A stretch of 64,000 nt of DNA, taken from assembly GCA_963666285.1 (NCBI GenBank), contig OY762711.1; one strand, written 5' to 3'. This DNA is from Sedimentisphaerales bacterium (GTDB lineage Bacteria; Planctomycetota; Phycisphaerae; Sedimentisphaerales; SM23-30). The notes beneath the pieces are model-generated. The model was not told the DNA's origin, did not search any database, and saw nothing but the letters and a program-made list of their open reading frames with translations. Below are positions 24,080-49,907 of this stretch, piece after piece; the first letter of the stretch is position 1, and each line of letters starts with the position of its first letter. Both the position numbers and the translations under genes were made by a program.

Positions 24080-24153
24080 GCGCTCGTAGCTCAATTGGAT
24101 AGAGCATTGGTCTACGAAACCAAAGGTTACAGGTTCGACTCCTGTCGGGCGTA
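24080..24153 (+). tRNA. tRNA-Arg(ACG), CCA not encoded; likely prophage attL
   Basis: Cloverleaf: GCGCTCG/CGGGCGT acceptor, D-arm GCTC..GAGC, anticodon stem TTGGT-CTACGAA-ACCAA, T-loop GGTTCGACTCC. Confidence 0.95.
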
Positions 24154-31419: not shown

Positions 31420-31578
31420 TTTACATTGGAATAGTTTTATATTATAATTTTCCCTTCTAGCGAAAGATAGCTGGAATAAATAACAATAAGACACTCAATT
31501 TTGGCTAGTGTGGTTTTGCTTTTTCCCTTCTGAATCCCGACCATAACATCATAAGGGCAAGATCACGCTGGCTTTTTT
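31420..31578 (+). ncRNA. Candidate small RNA with its own promoter and terminator
   Basis: TTTACA-N17-TATAAT; 20-bp helix 31504-31523/31553-31572 with six G-U pairs, then T6; no ORF in the track. Confidence 0.45.
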
Positions 31579-31918
31579 ATTTTAAACTGACCTAACTATA
31601 TTGTTTGAATTAAACCAGCTTTTTATTTTTCCTCCCCCCATCAGAAAATAGTAAAATGCGCACTCAATGCGCACTTTTGACTTTAAAATATTTTTTTTAT
31701 TCATTTGTCACACAAGAACTTACGTGTTTTTGTGTGGTTTTTTTATGCGCACTTTCTGCCTACTTACAGAAGCACTTTGTGTTTTTTACAAGTAAATAGA
31801 AGGTTGCGACCAAAAGAAAAATAACGTGGCATAAGCCCACTGAAATAAACCCATCTGCCGGACGGTTTTTCGCAACCTAACCTAATGGCAGGTGGGTTTT
31901 TTATTTTAAGGTTGTGAA

Positions 31919-35471: not shown

Positions 35472-35635
35472 CGTGTATATGTGGTAATTGCAAACGGCGG
35501 GTTTCCATAGTTGATTTAGAACCAATTAAGATTAGCGGTAAAGAACTGCAAATATGCCCTATGTGTCGTAAATGGGTTTTTAATATCGAGAGAAGAGATG
35601 AAGGCGAGAAAATACCAACAAGAGGCGATAGATAA
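35468..35635 (+). CDS. 55-aa Zn-ribbon protein (not in ORF track)
   Basis: MTCICGNCKRR...ICPMCRKW; ATGA overlap with upstream stop. Confidence 0.55.
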   Translation: MTCICGNCKRRVSIVDLEPIKISGKELQICPMCRKWVFNIERRDEGEKIPTRGDR

Positions 35636-37262
35636 CGCTTTTGATATATTCAAAACAAAGCAGTCTGCACTTGCGGTAATGGCTACCGGTCTGGGAAAGA
35701 CGATTACTTTTTCCCATGCCATAAGCCGCCGTCATAATGAAACAGGCAAAAGAGCTTTAGTTCTGGCCCATCGTGAGGAACTAATTAACCAGGCAGCGGA
35801 CAAAATAGAACGTGCTACAGGTTTACATTCAGATATTGAAATGGCTTCAAACTATGCACAGACATACGGTGCATTTATATCTGAGGTTGTAGTGGCAACG
35901 GTGCAAACCCTTTGTCGTGACCATAGATTAGAACGCTTTAATCCGCATGATTTCGGCCTTATTGTAACAGATGAGGCACATAGGGCCGCCGCTGCTTCAT
36001 ACCGCAAGATATATAATTATTTTCTCGATAGCAATCCTGATTGTAAACATTTGGGCGTTACGGCAACACCAGACAGAACAGATGAGCAGGCTTTAGGGCA
36101 AATATATGATGACGTTGCTATTGACTATAGTATTTCTGACGGAATTACAGACGGCTATTTGGTTGATGTTGAACAGCAAGTTGTAGAGGTTGTAGGTCTT
36201 GACTTATCTAGCTGTAGAACCAAGCTCGGCGATTTGGCTTCAAGTGACCTTAACGCCATATTAGAGCATGAAAAAATAATGCACGAAATGGCTATCCCTA
36301 CAATGGAAATTGCCGGGGATAGGAAAACGCTTGTTTTTGCCAGTTCAGTTACCCAGGCAGAAGGATTAAAAGAGATATTCAACCGATACCAGCCTGAATC
36401 GACAGAATTTGTATGTGGTAAAACGCCAAAGGATGTCAGGCGTGATATTGTTGAACGGTATTATAAAGGTGAAATACGCCGTCTAGTGAATGTTGGCTGC
36501 TTTACTGAGGGCTTTGATGATCCAGGTGTCGAAGTTATAGCCAACGGCAGACCAACTAAAAGCCGGTCATTATATGCTCAGATATTCGGCAGAATGACAC
36601 GCCCGGCAGAATGTATCGCCCATGAATTAAACTATCTGGAAACTGCACTGCAACGGCGAGAACTTATTGCTAACTCAATTAAGCCTAAAGCCTTAATGAT
36701 TGACTTGGTTGGCAATTCAGGCCGTCATAAACTTGTTACTGCTACTGATATATTAGGTGGTAAATACCCCGACGAGGTAATAGAACTTGCAGCAGAAAAC
36801 GCCAAACGTAAGGGCAAGCCTGAAAATGTAATGACAGAACTTGCCAGGGCTGAAGCTGAAATAGCACACCGGCACAGGAAAGCATTAGAAGCCGCAGAAC
36901 GTGAACAAATCAAGTTTCAGGCTAAATATTACGCTGTTGATGTTTCGCCTTTTGATGTACTGGATATTACCCCTAAACGCATTCCAGGTTATATCACTAA
37001 AAAGCCAATGTCCACCAAGCAAAGGGAAATGCTAGAAAGATGGGGAATCCCCAATATTGACCAGATCGATAACAGCATACACGCATCACAGGTAATTGAT
37101 GCAGCACCGCCGTCAGATAAACAGGCTTATAGATTACGGCAAGTTGGGATAGACCCATCAAGCGTTAATAGAATTACTGCTAATAAGATTATGGGTAGTT
37201 TGGCTAAAAATGGCTGGAAAATGAATGACTATGTAAGAGGGCTTGTTAAGGATGTCGGATAA
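35598..37262 (+). CDS. SF2 DEAD/DEAH-box helicase
   Basis: RKYQ, ATGLGKT, DEAH, TATP, TEGFDDP, QIFGR. Confidence 0.95.
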   Translation: MKARKYQQEAIDNAFDIFKTKQSALAVMATGLGKTITFSHAISRRHNETGKRALVLAHREELINQAADKIERATGLHSDIEMASNYAQTYGAFISEVVVATVQTLCRDHRLERFNPHDFGLIVTDEAHRAAAASYRKIYNYFLDSNPDCKHLGVTATPDRTDEQALGQIYDDVAIDYSISDGITDGYLVDVEQQVVEVVGLDLSSCRTKLGDLASSDLNAILEHEKIMHEMAIPTMEIAGDRKTLVFASSVTQAEGLKEIFNRYQPESTEFVCGKTPKDVRRDIVERYYKGEIRRLVNVGCFTEGFDDPGVEVIANGRPTKSRSLYAQIFGRMTRPAECIAHELNYLETALQRRELIANSIKPKALMIDLVGNSGRHKLVTATDILGGKYPDEVIELAAENAKRKGKPENVMTELARAEAEIAHRHRKALEAAEREQIKFQAKYYAVDVSPFDVLDITPKRIPGYITKKPMSTKQREMLERWGIPNIDQIDNSIHASQVIDAAPPSDKQAYRLRQVGIDPSSVNRITANKIMGSLAKNGWKMNDYVRGLVKDVG

Positions 37263-38133
37263 CTGGATTGGAATAGAAAAGGCCCGCAAGTTATGTCCGG
37301 TTTGTGGTAAAAATGACTGGTGTCAGATAACCATTGATGGCTCTACTGCTCGCTGTATGCGCGTTGAATCAGATTGGCTCAAGATTGGCAAAGATGGTTC
37401 TTATGGCTGGCTGCACGTAATTACAGACAGTACAGAGGTAAAGCCTGTTGTTAAGCAGACAATAAATAAGCCGCCTAAACTACGCCCTGAACGCTGGTTT
37501 GAGCTGGCTATGGGTTATCGTGCTGGATGTGACTTATCGCCGCTAAGTACAGATTTGGGCGTGTCTGTGGCAAGCCTGGAACGCATGGAAACAGGCAGCG
37601 GATTAATAAAGTATAAGCCAGATCAACCCGCCCAACAATGTTGGACGTTTCCAATGCGAGACGGCAACGAAAGCATTATTGGTATCAGAACCAGACATGC
37701 AGGTAGAAAGGCAAGTTACCCCGGCAGTGAAAACGGCCTGTTTATCCCAGATGAAATATGCAGTAGTGAACTTGTCATTGTAGAAGGTGCAACAGACCCG
37801 CCCGCATTACTTGATATTGGTATTGAAGGCGTGATAGGCAGAGCTAATTGTAATAGTGGTATTAACCATATCCAGTGTTATATCAAGCGTACCAAACCAA
37901 AGAAAATAATCATAGTTACTGACAATGATGAGCCGAAAAAGCGTCCTGATGGTTCTGTATGGTTTCCCGGTCAGGATGGTTCATTAAGGCTTGCAAAGGA
38001 ATTACCTTATAAAGATATACCTGTTTGCATTATCAAACCTATTCGCTGTAAAGATGTTCGAGAATGGGTACAGAATGGATTAACAAGACAATTGTTTTAT
38101 AGCGTTGTAAAAAACACCAGACGCTTTTTATAA
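37252..38133 (+). CDS. Phage primase-like protein (Zn-binding + TOPRIM)
   Basis: CPVCGKNDWC...CMR; FPM; VEGATD; DND; KDVREW. Confidence 0.85.
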   Translation: MSDNWIGIEKARKLCPVCGKNDWCQITIDGSTARCMRVESDWLKIGKDGSYGWLHVITDSTEVKPVVKQTINKPPKLRPERWFELAMGYRAGCDLSPLSTDLGVSVASLERMETGSGLIKYKPDQPAQQCWTFPMRDGNESIIGIRTRHAGRKASYPGSENGLFIPDEICSSELVIVEGATDPPALLDIGIEGVIGRANCNSGINHIQCYIKRTKPKKIIIVTDNDEPKKRPDGSVWFPGQDGSLRLAKELPYKDIPVCIIKPIRCKDVREWVQNGLTRQLFYSVVKNTRRFL

Positions 38134-38526
38134 GCTCGTAAGCCTCAACCTGTAAAGGTCATGCAGAGCAAAAGACAACTTATTACAGCGGTGATTTCGA
38201 CCGTTCAACCTTGCGAGGTATCGAAATAGCAGAAGTTTGATTACACCGTCTATCTGCTTAATAAAACAGGCGATGAGCTGAATTATGTATCTGTTAATGT
38301 CGTGATGATATTTTCAGGAAAAAGTCGTGTAGGCTACTAGCGTTACCGCCTGCACGCCTTAAAGGTAACGCAACTTTAAGCACTCCAGCGTATCAGGCAG
38401 TGTCAGCGGTAATGGTGAAATGATACGCCGCACGAAAGCGACGGCTCGGCTCCGGTAGAGCAGAATTTTAGCATGTGCAGTCCCTATCCTGGGACGCAGT
38501 GCGCTCCGACTCTCACCAATAGAGCA
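38133..38526 (+). ncRNA. Candidate large structured RNA (or ssDNA) element
   Basis: More than 10 helices and two loop-loop pairings; no ORF of 60 aa or more; see findings. Confidence 0.6.
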
Positions 38527-38566
38527 TTTAATATTAACAACTATTTTAAGTAAAGAGATTTATATT

Positions 38567-39031
38567 ATGTCTAAACAACAAACAAAAAAAACTATTAAAA
38601 AGCATTGTGACCAGCTCTGGTCAATGATTGTACGGTTTCCCGGCAGGTGTGAAATATGTGGTAGTTCGACCAAGCAGCTACACGCCCACCATTTAATATC
38701 AAGAGAGCGGATACACTATCGTTATGACCTTAGTAACGGTGTTTGTCTTTGTGCAACCTGCCATGAGTTTAGTAATGATTGTGCTGCACATTCAAGTAAT
38801 ACCGCAGGTGTTGAAAACTTTATTGAATGGCTGAAAGGCTCAGAACATGGTCAATGGTGGAATGACAATAAAACCCAAAGGCCGTTAGAGACTTATAACC
38901 TTGCCTGGTATCAACAGCAGAAAGATTATTTGATGAAAGTCCTTGCAGATAAGTTGGGCTATAAGGGTAAACATACTTTATCTGGTCTTAGGAAGGCATT
39001 TAGAGATAGGGATAACGTATATGGCTATTGA
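38567..39031 (+). CDS. NinG/HNH-like endonuclease
   Basis: CEICG...HAHHLISR....RYD..NG.CLC..CH. Confidence 0.8.
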   Translation: MSKQQTKKTIKKHCDQLWSMIVRFPGRCEICGSSTKQLHAHHLISRERIHYRYDLSNGVCLCATCHEFSNDCAAHSSNTAGVENFIEWLKGSEHGQWWNDNKTQRPLETYNLAWYQQQKDYLMKVLADKLGYKGKHTLSGLRKAFRDRDNVYGY

Positions 39032-44722: not shown

Positions 44723-46332
44723 TGGACTACCCCGATTATTTACAACTTATACCGGATTATGACCCGGTTGCAACAGCCGAGGACTGTACTTTTGACGCTG
44801 AAATTGCGCAGCTTGCTATTGATTTCTTTGCTGAAGAGTTGTGTTTAATCGAGGGTGTACCGGGTTATCCTGCCTTTATCCTTGAGGCATGGCAAAAGGC
44901 TATTATCGCTAATCTGTTCGGCTGGCTGCGTCCTGATGGCACTAGGCGTTATACCGAAGCGTTTTTAATGATACCACGTAAGAACGGTAAAACCCCGCTT
45001 ATGGCAGGTGTGATTAACCATATAGCCTATAATGAGGATGAGCCAGGCGGTCAGATATATTCCAGTGCCGGGGAAAAGAACCAGGCCGCTTTGATATTCC
45101 GTCATGTAGCGGGCATGATTCAGCGTAATCCAGAGCTTGACAAGCGGGCCAAGATATACAAGACCTATAAAAGTGCCGAATTTTACGGCGGTGACTGTAT
45201 CTATAATGCTCTTTCTGCTGACGCTAATACCAAGCATGGTCAGAACGCCCATTTGATTATCAATGATGAGCTGCATGTACATAAAACAAGGGATTTGATT
45301 GATACCCTGGAAACGTCCACCGCTTCACGAAAGCAGCCTTTAGTAATTCATATTACTACTGCCGGATATGACAAGGAAACAATCTGTTATGAAAAATATG
45401 ATTATGCCTGTAAGGTTCGTGACGGTGTTATAAATGACAGTTCATTCCTGCCTGTTATCTATGAAATCAAGCAGGCTGATTATGACCGCTGGGATGATCC
45501 GGCTGTATGGGAATATTGCAACCCGAATTTAGGTATATCGGTTAATCGTGACTATCTGGAAAAGCAGTGTCAGAAAGCAAAGGCAATCCCGGCAAAAGAA
45601 AACACCTTCAGGCGTTTACACCTGAACCAGTGGACAGAGCAGGAATGCCGCTGGTTAAGTGTTAAGGCGTGGCAGGATTGCAATGTCGAACTTAGAAATG
45701 ATAACGGTATTATCTGGATCGGCGGGCTTGACCTATCAACTACAACAGATTTAACGGCCTTTACTGCTTTGGGTTTTGATTCGCTTGGTAATCTGCACTG
45801 GCATAGCTGGCCTTTTATCCCGAAAGATAATGCAACCAAGCGGGAACATCAAGACGGCGTTCCTTATCTGACCTGGGCGCGGCAAGGTAAAATCACTCTT
45901 ACAGATGGTAATGTAGTTGATTATAACGTGATTCAGGATCATATATTGAAAATGCACCAGATATATAACTTTGCTGAAATAGCTTATGACCCATATAACG
46001 CTACTCAGATGATATTAAACTTACAGGATAAAGGCATAGAATGTACGCCTTATGGTCAGGGTATAAAGAATATATCCCCGCCTTGTAAAGCTTTAGAGGC
46101 TTTGTTACTGGCTGGCAAAATCGCCCATGATGACCATCCTGTATTAAACTGGTGCGTTTCTAATGTAACGGTCAAACAGGATGAAAACGAAAATATCAAG
46201 CCTGTCAAGCCTAAGAACTTTAAGCGTATCGATATTATTGTTGCCGGTCTAATGGCTTTAGGCCGGTTAATTACAGAGAACCACGAAACCCAAGAATCAA
46301 TTTATGAGGAAAGAGACCCTTTTACATTCTAA
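44722..46332 (+). CDS. Terminase large subunit
   Basis: LEAWQ, PRKNGKT, DELH, ITTAG, GLDLS...DLTA, RID. Confidence 0.96.
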   Translation: MDYPDYLQLIPDYDPVATAEDCTFDAEIAQLAIDFFAEELCLIEGVPGYPAFILEAWQKAIIANLFGWLRPDGTRRYTEAFLMIPRKNGKTPLMAGVINHIAYNEDEPGGQIYSSAGEKNQAALIFRHVAGMIQRNPELDKRAKIYKTYKSAEFYGGDCIYNALSADANTKHGQNAHLIINDELHVHKTRDLIDTLETSTASRKQPLVIHITTAGYDKETICYEKYDYACKVRDGVINDSSFLPVIYEIKQADYDRWDDPAVWEYCNPNLGISVNRDYLEKQCQKAKAIPAKENTFRRLHLNQWTEQECRWLSVKAWQDCNVELRNDNGIIWIGGLDLSTTTDLTAFTALGFDSLGNLHWHSWPFIPKDNATKREHQDGVPYLTWARQGKITLTDGNVVDYNVIQDHILKMHQIYNFAEIAYDPYNATQMILNLQDKGIECTPYGQGIKNISPPCKALEALLLAGKIAHDDHPVLNWCVSNVTVKQDENENIKPVKPKNFKRIDIIVAGLMALGRLITENHETQESIYEERDPFTF

Positions 46333-49300
46333 TGTTACCGGAAATTATAAAAAAGAATAAAGACGAGGTATTAGATGAGCTTGTTAGTGTTATTATGGTT
46401 GCACGTAATGAAAAGCTGCTTGGTAAAACCTTAAATAATATGCAGCAGATGTCAGAAGGCCCGATAGAGTTCATTGTTTTACTTGATGGCCCAAATGATG
46501 AGCCGATTGATATAGCAGGTGCAAAGACTACTATTATCACCCTGAAAGATAATATAGGCAGAAGGCCCGCAACTGACAAGGCTGTTTCTTATGCTAAGGG
46601 TAAGTATGTATTTCATATAGATTCACACTGTAAAACCGATGTTTTCGGTTGGGATACTATATATAAGCAGCTATGTATTGATAAGCGTACTATGGTAATT
46701 CCAGACCTTGACGCTTTGTTAGTAGATAAATACAAAAGCAAAGGCCGTCGAGCTGGTCATAAATATATTGATGTTCGCTATAAAGATCAATGGAGCGGCG
46801 TTAAGACCCAGGGCCGTAATGAATATACCATTACTGGTAACGGTATGGGCTGGTTTCTGGAAAAGCAGTTTTATGATGCTTTTAATGGCTGCTGTAAAAA
46901 ACAGCCTGCCCGGTGGGGTAATTTCGGGGTTGAATGGGCCTCTAAAGTCTGGCTTTCTGATCCATACGGCGAGGGTATCGGCGGTAAGGTTATATTGTGC
47001 GGTGAAGTGCCGTTTGCTCACATGTGGAAAACAGGCGGCACAGGCTATAATACACCGGGGGTATCTAAAGGCAGGCAGGATTTATTCAAGTGGTTTAATG
47101 GTACAGGTGAGAATCAGTGCCGGGAATTTAGCTTTTTTGAAACTGAGCTTAAACACTTACTGCCTAAAAGGGTTAAGCATGAACATAAACGGCCTTTAAC
47201 TGTCTCATTACCGCCTGTCGCTGTTGTCAATTGTGACAAGCCCGCTGTAACGGCGATAATGAATACAAACGGTCTTTACCCACATTTAGACGCTGAGGCC
47301 ATAGAAAGCTTTTTACGGCAGGATTACGAAAATAAGCAGCTTATTATAGTTGCAACAAATCCAACATACAAGCTTGATAAGAGCTATGAAAATATTACAG
47401 TAATCAACCATGAACCGTTTAACCGTTTCCCGCAGCAGATAGCCTATGCCTTAAAGCAGGTTAAAACGCCGCTATGGTGCATTATGGATTCAGATGATGT
47501 ATTTAGTTCTGACCATATAAGCAGACTTGTAAAGCTATATCACAGGGCTAAAAGTGACGGTCTGGAAAGTCCCGGCTATGTGGTAAATGATACAGCCTGG
47601 GAACAGGTAAAAAATAACTGGCCTAAACGCCGGGAGCGTGGCTGGTGGTGTTGCCTGTATGAAAAGGTTGATAGTACCTTTATTGATGAGGTATTCAATG
47701 ACTTTCTAGCTAGTAAACAGAAAGATACCGGCAGCGACTTACATTTCATTAAAAATCAGGAATGGAACTGGATTAAATACCATAATGAAAAAGCGACCGT
47801 ATTGCACCGGCTCGGCGTAGGCTTCCATATCAGGAATGAACATAGTAAGCCAGGCTATTACAGAAATTCAATAGAAAAGGTCAAAAATAACATATTAGAG
47901 CCAATTATACCCGGTTGGCAGAAAGATTATAATGATATGATAGATAACTTTAACAATCCCGCTATTACCTGCATTATGAATACATTTCAAAGGGATAGAG
48001 CAACACTTGAAATAGCTGTAAATTCCTTTTTGAATAATGACTATGAAAATAAAAAGCTTCTTATTGTCAACAGCAATCCTAAACCGCTATGGATTAATGG
48101 CTATCACCCATGTATTGAAGTTGTAAATATTGCACCTTCTGACCATATAACCGAGTTTAAGCAAGCCTTAAATTATGTTAAAACATCGCATGTATCAATC
48201 CTTGACGATGATGACCGGGTAAGTATTAACCACGTTGGACAGATAGCAGAAGCTCTAAAAGCCAATAAGTTCAAGAATATTATCAATCTGAACTTTGAGG
48301 AAATGGATTGCAGTAATATCAAGCCTGGAAATATGTCCGGGCCGGTAAAGCAGCTTAAAAAACTTATGTGGTGGAATGGTGTCTATCGTACTGATGATAT
48401 GCGTAAAGTTGATATCGGTACAGACCTGCAAGGCTTTGATAAACGTATTATGGCAGCTTTAGCACCGCTTGAACTTGACTTGCCTGTTACTTATACATGG
48501 TGTCGCAACCATGTAATACATGAAAGCAAGTCCGGCAGAAACGCCCATAAAAACAAACTGGATCGGATTGCAAGAGCCAGAGCCGAGGCAAGCCCGCAGC
48601 CTATTACATTGGATTATACATTAAGTGAATACCCCGAAGTTACTGTAGTTTGCTGCACGTATGGCGCACATAAACACCGTACCGAAGAAATGTTAGAATC
48701 ATTTTTACGGCAGAGCTATCCAAAGGCAAGGCTTTTATTGCTTAATACCCATAAAGACCCTATTGTATTTCAGCAGCGGTATAGCAATATAGATGTTGTG
48801 GAAATGCCGGGCCATAACTTCGATACCCTTGCCAAAAAGCATGAACACGCTATCAGTCTGGTTAAAACACCTTATTGGATGATTTGTGATGATGACGATA
48901 TTATGCTGAAAAATCACATATTAACCTTAATGCAGGTCAATTACTGGAATAAGCGAGGGTATCATAAACCATCAAATAAACGGCCTTTGCAATCTTCACA
49001 TGAACGCAAGATTGTAATGTGTAATAATGATTATGCCTTTATCAAGAATGGTTCGGGCTGGACTTGTGCAGCATTTGAGACAGTGAGCCGGGATAAGCTG
49101 GCAGCCAAGTTTAGCAAACCTGTAAAGGGTTTGCCTGATAACTGTTACGATGGCCGGGTTCGTTTAAGTTCATGGCATGAGCAGCGTATCAGTTACCCAT
49201 TTTTACCGGGCTATGTCTGGCGTGGCGGTGGTAATGGATTTCACTTATCTATGACCGGAAAAAACAAGCAGTTAGCCGATTATGCCTATGAAAATGCCGA

Positions 49301-49907
49301 GCAGCGGGCAAACCTTATTAATAATGGTACTTGGCATCCGCATTTTGAAAAAGACTATAATAGCGAATTTGCGGCGTTTCTGTACAAGGCAGAAGAAAAG
49401 CGGCTGCATGGCAAAAATGCTTTTTATGTTCATTTGGATGATAAAGGTGCTATGCGTACAAAGGAATTTAACTTTGTTGTTGATTTCCTGAAGCAGCATA
49501 ATATCAGCAAAATAGTAGAGTTTGGCTGTGGTGCTTCTACTCTTTCCTTTGCTTCACTTGGCTTTGATATTACCAGCTATGAAACAAGTCAGTATTGGCA
49601 TGATAAAATTAGGCTGCTATTAGACCGGGATTGTATCAAGTTATATGATGGTGCAGCCATTAATTTGCCTGTACATGACTTTATTATCATTGATGGCCCA
49701 GACCCACCGGAAACAAGGGAAGAATCATTTATCGCTGCTGTTAACTCAAAGAGTAAATACATTGCCTGTCATGATATATTCAGAAAGCAGGAGCAGGATT
49801 TAATCAGTAAATACCTGATTGGCACAGGTTACAGGGAAATAGCCAGGCTTGAACCAAGTAAAAAACATAAACTGCATGGAGTAGCTATATATGGTCTTGG
49901 CAATTGA
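46332..49907 (+). CDS. Five-domain glycosylation enzyme: ppGalNAc-T-like GT-A + three GT2 domains + class I SAM methyltransferase
   Basis: IDSHC/WG...E...KVW..GG/AHMW; three P.(V/I)T...ESFL.QDY...VKT...DxDD-type units; VEFGCGAST...IIDGP...HD. Confidence 0.8.
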   Translation: MLPEIIKKNKDEVLDELVSVIMVARNEKLLGKTLNNMQQMSEGPIEFIVLLDGPNDEPIDIAGAKTTIITLKDNIGRRPATDKAVSYAKGKYVFHIDSHCKTDVFGWDTIYKQLCIDKRTMVIPDLDALLVDKYKSKGRRAGHKYIDVRYKDQWSGVKTQGRNEYTITGNGMGWFLEKQFYDAFNGCCKKQPARWGNFGVEWASKVWLSDPYGEGIGGKVILCGEVPFAHMWKTGGTGYNTPGVSKGRQDLFKWFNGTGENQCREFSFFETELKHLLPKRVKHEHKRPLTVSLPPVAVVNCDKPAVTAIMNTNGLYPHLDAEAIESFLRQDYENKQLIIVATNPTYKLDKSYENITVINHEPFNRFPQQIAYALKQVKTPLWCIMDSDDVFSSDHISRLVKLYHRAKSDGLESPGYVVNDTAWEQVKNNWPKRRERGWWCCLYEKVDSTFIDEVFNDFLASKQKDTGSDLHFIKNQEWNWIKYHNEKATVLHRLGVGFHIRNEHSKPGYYRNSIEKVKNNILEPIIPGWQKDYNDMIDNFNNPAITCIMNTFQRDRATLEIAVNSFLNNDYENKKLLIVNSNPKPLWINGYHPCIEVVNIAPSDHITEFKQALNYVKTSHVSILDDDDRVSINHVGQIAEALKANKFKNIINLNFEEMDCSNIKPGNMSGPVKQLKKLMWWNGVYRTDDMRKVDIGTDLQGFDKRIMAALAPLELDLPVTYTWCRNHVIHESKSGRNAHKNKLDRIARARAEASPQPITLDYTLSEYPEVTVVCCTYGAHKHRTEEMLESFLRQSYPKARLLLLNTHKDPIVFQQRYSNIDVVEMPGHNFDTLAKKHEHAISLVKTPYWMICDDDDIMLKNHILTLMQVNYWNKRGYHKPSNKRPLQSSHERKIVMCNNDYAFIKNGSGWTCAAFETVSRDKLAAKFSKPVKGLPDNCYDGRVRLSSWHEQRISYPFLPGYVWRGGGNGFHLSMTGKNKQLADYAYENAEQRANLINNGTWHPHFEKDYNSEFAAFLYKAEEKRLHGKNAFYVHLDDKGAMRTKEFNFVVDFLKQHNISKIVEFGCGASTLSFASLGFDITSYETSQYWHDKIRLLLDRDCIKLYDGAAINLPVHDFIIIDGPDPPETREESFIAAVNSKSKYIACHDIFRKQEQDLISKYLIGTGYREIARLEPSKKHKLHGVAIYGLGN

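Follow-up and report, generated by a model that had tools for sequence, protein, structure and literature searches.

A rare multi-pseudoknot element, most likely an RNA and apparently undescribed, behind the primase gene of planctomycete prophages

In a prophage of a Sedimentisphaerales bacterium, a primase-like gene is directly followed by a real, rare, multi-pseudoknot element of about 330 nt, which is tied to one clade of phage primases and apparently undescribed. This element most likely represents a structured RNA of a new kind, which may perhaps help to start viral DNA replication. Its novelty is one of structural class, any new mechanism being hypothetical; transcription and function are what we infer. 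The conserved, covarying, single-stranded fold accompanies one helicase-primase module found in temperate phages of planctomycetes of the Sedimentisphaerales type, and the element class is rare (four distinct sequences). The initial annotation of the window (i.e., the whole 64,000-nt stretch analysed here) had already proposed a large multi-domain structured element on the + strand next to the primase gene, which covariation among homologues now supports.

The prophage holds a gene-free gap of 433 nt between ORF 37243-38133 and ORF 38567-39031 of the 64-kb window, which is indeed, as had been noticed, the largest gap in the operon (maximum within the + strand gene run from 31.9 to 44.2 kb). 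The early prophage genes are ordered as excisionase, Gp157, Erf, SSB, DUF3102, SF2 helicase and primase, and the element borders these replication genes on one side and another 24 kb of + strand genes on the other. The features of this neighbourhood are as follows:

35598..37262, + strand: superfamily-2 helicase gene of the same replication module (Pfam ResIII/Helicase_C; PHROG 16)
37243..38133, + strand: primase-like gene (Cys-rich N-terminus and TOPRIM), constant upstream neighbour of the element
38188..38525, + strand: conserved structured element, most likely RNA (match of covariance model R1; covariation)
38567..39031, + strand: NinG/Rap-like HNH gene (PHROG 5034; 154 aa)

The primase-like ORF matches PHROG 239 (E 2e-8) and, weakly, DnaG (E 4e-4), and its residues E181, G182, D185, D227 and D229 are invariant or nearly so. 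The NinG-like HNH gene is the downstream neighbour in this genome only and lies outside the conserved unit, as different genes are found 3' of the element in homologues L132 and L038.

Three diverged homologues were obtained through a primase search: one in a same-genus genome (L014/L132, hereafter L132), one in IMG/VR (L038) and one in a metagenome (L111). The sample thus consists of four distinct sequences from related phages, plus a near-identical second prophage copy in the window's own genome (98% identical over the element). The element is located directly 3' of the primase gene in all five copies, and its 3' neighbour differs in all three distinct readable cases (a NinG-like gene, an uncharacterised 121-aa ORF and a helicase-like gene, one copy's contig ending first). 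Pairwise identity of the element is 51-70% among the four sequences, while four-fold (silent) sites of the element-bearing primases are only 18-37% identical, i.e. saturated. In addition, every reading frame across the element is broken by 3-14 stops in each of the four sequences. The decayed ORF that had been envisaged is thus not what we observe. As for the second prophage copy (G000:C1, about 967,000-998,600, - strand), most of its blocks are about 85-94% identical to the first, and the two copies show no difference over window positions 38227-38913, versus 8.9% in the primase gene, which implies either recent exchange or strong constraint.

The gap that follows the primase gene could be measured at 98 distinct loci where the next ORF was callable; it is 50 nt or less in 87 and at least 250 nt in three, all of which are element-bearing (this count relied on a mechanical ORF caller and dropped L111, duplicates and loci with less than 350 nt downstream). 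Element-bearing primases form one branch together with two context-less proteins, P0004 and P0073 (SH-aLRT 100, quick tree), and only two 50%-identity clusters stand out in this clade, so the element family is rare. The close helicases P0224-P0226 are likewise context-less. The covariance model, which matches the window at 38183-38531, gave no match near the 95 other sources scored nor, with filters off, in six sister loci. In the own genome it matched twice, both times on C1. Two of 150 relatives were positive (the own genome and G003), as was one of 150 phylum genomes and one of 150 class genomes (the own genome in both cases); these three sets overlap partly, and distant homologues may have escaped, just 10 candidates per genome being scored. 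No element was detected away from a primase gene in the three sets or in the viral pattern scans. BLAST searches with the element returned no relatives across 60 genomes, missing even the homologue-bearing G003, and those with the L111 version returned just 20-35 nt matches, in 6 of 300 other genomes. Similarly, GenBank phages and plasmids contained no useful match to the element, and GenBank phages no match to the primase. Among six DNA-pattern scans of IMG/VR, one was empty and two gave the L038 contig alone; the other pattern loci (10 of 11 and 60 of 61) were attributed to chance, nearly all falling within long open frames, and so were the at least 120 stretches of a further scan, 80 of which were scored by the model. 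Contigs of four sequencing runs yielded solely the two copies already known, along with close strain variants.

The element measures about 340 nt in the window and about 290-330 nt in the homologues, and its parts, all on the + strand, can be described as follows:

38188..38227, + strand: 5' pseudoknot domain (P1, PK1, P2)
38188-91/38201-04, + strand: P1, whose 3-bp core covaries (register uncertain)
38196-200 (P1 loop) with 38221-25, + strand: PK1, 5 pairs in all four sequences, 2 of them two-sided
38208-11/38216-19, + strand: P2, inner hairpin, 3 of 4 pairs two-sided
38229..38272, + strand: H-type pseudoknot, P3 crossed by P4
38229-32/38254-57, + strand: P3, invariant
38247-51/38268-72, + strand: P4, 5 pairs in all four sequences, 3 of them two-sided
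38277..38428, + strand: central domain, P5 and P9 crossed by P10
38277-80/38404-07, + strand: P5, 1 of 4 pairs two-sided
38326-34/38348-56, + strand: hairpin A, 5 of 6 outer pairs two-sided, conserved loop motif near 38339-47
38358-64/38374-80, + strand: hairpin B, 5 of 6 pairs two-sided, loop variable
38381-84/38399-402, + strand: P9, invariant
38388-95/38421-28, + strand: P10, 6 of 8 pairs two-sided
38429..38525, + strand: 3' domain, with hairpins 38449-52/38458-61, 38480-84/38491-95 and 38503-06/38522-25
38429-33/38499-503, + strand: possible closing stem of the 3' domain

The tetraloop of P2, UG(C/A)G, is conserved, and the U-rich loop 1 and A-rich loop 3 of the P3-P4 pseudoknot suggest that a triple helix may form there. 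The central domain contains an invariant unpaired AAUGGUG (38411-17) and surrounds hairpins A and B as well as a variable hairpin, which is missing from L038. The 3' domain is the least certain, as it aligns poorly between two subgroups.

Folding of a single sequence is no better than that of shuffled ones, so that stems seen in one sequence prove little: the MFE z-score of the window is -1.21 on the + strand (8 of 100 shuffles are as good) and -0.52 on the - strand, and two homologues score -1.44 and -1.36. Support for the fold comes from the comparison of the four sequences. On their unedited MAFFT alignment, 96.3% of the 163 cells of nine helices are paired and 19 of 41 pairs show two-sided changes, a score reached by none of 500 shuffles, while slid controls leave 27-42% of cells paired. 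As this nine-helix structure was picked after the alignment had been seen, we added a structure-free test, which takes helices of 4 bp or longer that all four sequences share. It counts 14 covarying pairs, versus 1.9 +/- 1.6 in 200 column shuffles (none of which reaches 14), helix number by itself (4) being matched by 16 of the 200. Finally, a motif-anchored map of ten helices, in which registers were allowed to slip, comprises 179 Watson-Crick, 12 G-U, 1 mismatched and 0 A-C cells. R-scape-grade statistics are beyond the reach of four related sequences. The proposal that G-U pairs favour the + strand agrees with the 12 G-U and 0 A-C cells of this map; however, the map was picked on the + strand and the structure-free test scores 12 on the - strand, nearly as high as on the + strand. 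The + orientation thus also leans on the operon.

The region had also been described as densely paired, and the 12 strand pairings tested are all complementary where they had been placed, the hairpin at 38449-61 being present too. The stems listed at that time therefore exist in the window, but the conserved ones are partly different. The outer stems of the proposed domain I (38133-45 and 38150-55/38183-88) lie 5' of the conserved region, and a T to A change at 38153 in the second prophage copy puts a mismatch into one of them; moreover, strands 38268-72 and 38277-80 pair elsewhere, with conserved partners (in P4 and P5). Comparing homologues 3' of related primases, as had been recommended, likewise reveals stems that covary, but not the proposed kissing loops. 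The kiss between hairpins A and B amounts to 7-8 bp in the window, is weaker in the homologues and fails in one of them, with no compensatory change, the longest loop-loop match being 3 bp in L111 (5 bp by eye, if the terminal stem pair opens), 4 bp elsewhere in L038 and 2 bp in L132. Loop A also matches the 3' strand of the 38480-95 hairpin (4-7 bp with wobbles in all four sequences), a pairing that competes with this hairpin; its partner may be either loop B or 38493-97. In L111 (1627-1640/1771-1784) and in L038 (818-828/960-970), a second copy of the hairpin A loop stands just past the equivalent of the 38480-95 hairpin, which suggests an internal duplication or a strand-exchange switch. 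The second proposed kiss, TGGTGA/TCACCA, probably involves the wrong partner: it is intact in the window and L132 and broken in the other two homologues, L038 and L111, whose 3' strand has changed opposite an unvarying 5' strand. The loop of the last hairpin covaries instead with that of the 38449-61 hairpin, and a loop-loop contact between 38454-56 and 38515-17 is probable in the 3' domain (GGU/ACC in the window and L132, AUG/CAU in L038 and L111, within matches of 4-5 bp).

Judging from its setting, the element is probably part of the early transcript and made as RNA, since it has the same orientation as the early operon and no terminator-like site separates it from the primase gene in the window. 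A promoter-like + strand site is found upstream in two of the four distinct homologues: L038 has a sigma-70-like promoter (11/12) that overlaps the primase stop codon, with +1 near the first helix, and L111 has a promoter-like site and a U-tailed hairpin. No + strand promoter was called in the window or L132. Downstream, none of the four homologues scanned has a + strand terminator-like site 3' of the element, and the window contains two such sites between 38.5 and 50 kb, both weak. In L111, positions 1352-1470 comprise a sigma-70-like promoter at the primase stop followed by an A-tract, a long hairpin and a U-tract; positions 1384-96 are complementary to a stretch within the long hairpin, an attenuator-like arrangement (alternative pairing by eye) that the other homologues lack. 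Since the next gene changes between homologues, a gene-specific riboswitch is unlikely.

The element had been presumed unannotated, and we found no Rfam family that matches it. Rfam 15 detected one tRNA (at 24080) in the whole window and nothing over the element, three weak unrelated matches far below cut-off in 38000-38700 at E<=10, and two matches at the three homologue loci at E<=5, both outside the element. ARRPOF and GEBRO, both of which are Rfam families, were not matched at the window or homologue loci. ROOL and GOLLD (RF03087/RF02032) gave no match at E<=1 in the own genome, although the ROOL search was positive in no control genome either. HEARO/omegaRNA was rejected (no RF02033 match in the own genome, no constant IscB/IsrB downstream), as was tmRNA (ARAGORN empty at all four loci, no conserved open frame). 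Group I and II introns do not fit an element that is intergenic in all copies, next to a complete primase gene and with no Rfam match; neither the group I G-binding pair (P7 G-site) nor group II domain V is conserved in it (by eye). An iteron-type origin is not supported by the four regions, which contain two-copy repeat families at most. In the literature, we found no description of such a primase-adjacent phage RNA, although supplementary and subscription-journal motif catalogues could contain one: motifs in the available part of PMC10690425 are 151 nt or shorter, and the accessible text of 10.64898/2026.09.22.753630 does not mention primase.

A primer similar to ColE1 RNA II, a folded transcript acting at its origin, had been suggested and finds no direct support: the longest G run is 3-4 instead of a long G tract, the element has no conserved promoter of its own (promoter-like site in two of four homologues), and the phage encodes a primase. 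A link to replication stays our leading guess on other grounds, and we tentatively favour an origin-associated RNA of the helicase-primase module, while rating it below an even chance. The folded transcript, made in place, would bind the neighbouring primase or helicase or, alternatively, would keep the duplex open behind RNA polymerase; it would mark the replication start and do the job of the small initiator-like protein of related phages. Among element-free relatives, 58 of 108 loci carry at least one of six initiator-like/ATPase families in the fetched flanks; in 33 of these 58 this is a short, N-terminal initiator-like ORF that lies 0-1.8 kb beyond the primase gene on its strand, and four of the six nearest sister loci hold an initiator-like gene in the slot after it. 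Three element-bearing prophages, complete and from two independent lineages, contain none of the six families, although profiles built from element-free loci could miss an unrelated initiator. At the other 50 element-free loci, the short flanks contain no member of these families, and in many of them nin-type genes come straight after primase. The sister-group family owes its initiator label to Atlas leads (0.90-0.91) and has no Pfam or PHROG match and no profile match to the PHROG-labelled family. Since the four distinct sequences all come from related phages, the association with primase could be due to linkage alone. A bolder version, in which a 330-nt pseudoknotted RNA has replaced the initiator protein and specifies the origin together with an active TOPRIM primase, as an RNA-directed primosome, is doubtful. 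Directly after the primase gene in L008-L139, numerous related phages have short ORFs of ~120 aa that match only the N-terminal part of replication-initiator families, and an unnamed family resembling replisome-organiser N-termini is also found after primase there.

The best-surviving alternative, possible if rather unlikely, is a cis-acting leader or processive antiterminator, in which the nascent RNA would modify RNA polymerase or gate translation and transcription would continue into nin-type and late genes. It accords with a position between the replication genes and 24 kb more of + strand genes, with the indifference to the identity of the next gene, with the L038 promoter at the first helix and the L111 promoter-like site and U-tailed hairpin, with the overlap in L132 between the last hairpin and the ribosome-binding site of the next gene, and with the lack of any recognised Q-like gene in the window. 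HK022 put and B. subtilis EAR are, in the available text of PMC8632103, cis antiterminator RNAs, and resemble the element as structured RNAs oriented like the long operon that contains them; but put, according to the same text, is about 65 nt with two hairpins, whereas the element is larger, has no Rfam match and is followed by the two weak terminator-like sites mentioned above. The absence of a called promoter from the window and L132, and the overlap of the L038 site with the primase stop, also speak against a leader. EAR, too, is smaller than the element. No antiterminator was detected at E 1e-8 in 59 ORFs from eight element-free regions and one element-bearing prophage; being absent with and without the element, it does not discriminate.

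An independent ornate phage RNA comparable to ROOL and GOLLD is unlikely. Such an RNA would be released, have pseudoknot-protected ends and act in trans as a protein sponge, counter-defence or self-assembling particle, its proximity to primase being due to descent only. Both ends of the element are indeed knotted, a promoter-like site stands at the 5' end in L038, and size and complexity are similar to this group, whose members are also prophage-borne (available parts of PMC5737381 and 10.1101/2024.12.08.627333), ornate, with several pseudoknots and no assigned function. However, ROOL and GOLLD measure about 580-830 nt and often lie near tRNA genes, whereas the element is about 330 nt, has no tRNA beside it and occurs in one primase clade only, never away from primase in the genome sets or viral pattern scans; nor does it have a + strand 3' terminator-like site in the four homologues scanned. 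A 119-nt tRNA-like match (42 bits), longer than a normal tRNA, lies in the early region of the G003 prophage (L214 1817-1935, - strand).

The fold could also act as single-stranded DNA and serve primase as a recognition site, as the G4 origin and plasmid ssi signals do; this is very unlikely. The primase, helicase and SSB genes adjoin, the U-tailed hairpin upstream in L111 could block transcription, and comparative analysis does not distinguish RNA from ssDNA (PMC5737381, as far as its available text goes). Against this, several crossing helices joined by A-rich and U-rich linkers are characteristic of RNA tertiary structure, and the element keeps the sense orientation within the operon. Known ssDNA priming sites are simple sets of hairpins. 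A self-cleaving or processing ribozyme cutting the early transcript has slimmer chances still: invariant unpaired nucleotides surround the crossing helices, and large ornate bacterial RNAs are often catalytic (available part of PMC5737381), but there is no Rfam match even at E up to 5-10, no conserved group I G-binding pair, no conserved group II domain V (by eye) and no interrupted gene. Finally, chance hairpins or a decayed gene are scarcely credible despite MFE z-scores of -1.2 to -1.4 and a sample of four sequences, given covariation well beyond shuffled and slid controls, an identity well above that of primase four-fold sites, and frames that are broken in every sequence.

To our knowledge, bacterial RNAs of at least 300 nt with several pseudoknots are few, and those that are understood are catalysts, guides or scaffolds. 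HEARO/omegaRNA resembles the element in size and pseudoknots, and an HNH gene follows in the window, but this HNH gene is NinG-like, encodes 154 aa and is missing behind the homologues. The closest parallels to an origin-associated RNA are ARRPOF, GEBRO and PAGEV, which in the available text of PMC5737381 have a similar length (223-349 nt), are linked to replication by position and may be RNA or ssDNA. ARRPOF (255 nt) has four pseudoknots and, going by the accessible parts of PMC5737381 and PMC12990946, lies in a plasmid region needed for replication. These motifs are plasmid-borne and from other phyla, whereas the element lies in a phage operon behind a primase gene. It comes with a structure model and a named candidate partner, the primase, next door. 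Should the element prove to have a part in replication initiation, phages would have their own counterpart of the ARRPOF-type motifs, which are still unexplained, and it would be much easier to test, as primase and helicase can be purified with the RNA.

Elsewhere in the window, a gene for a 1191-aa multi-domain glycosyltransferase (46332-49907) is located between the prophage terminase and portal region, and an intergenic repeat of ~100 bp (31475-31590) is present in about a dozen copies over all four contigs.
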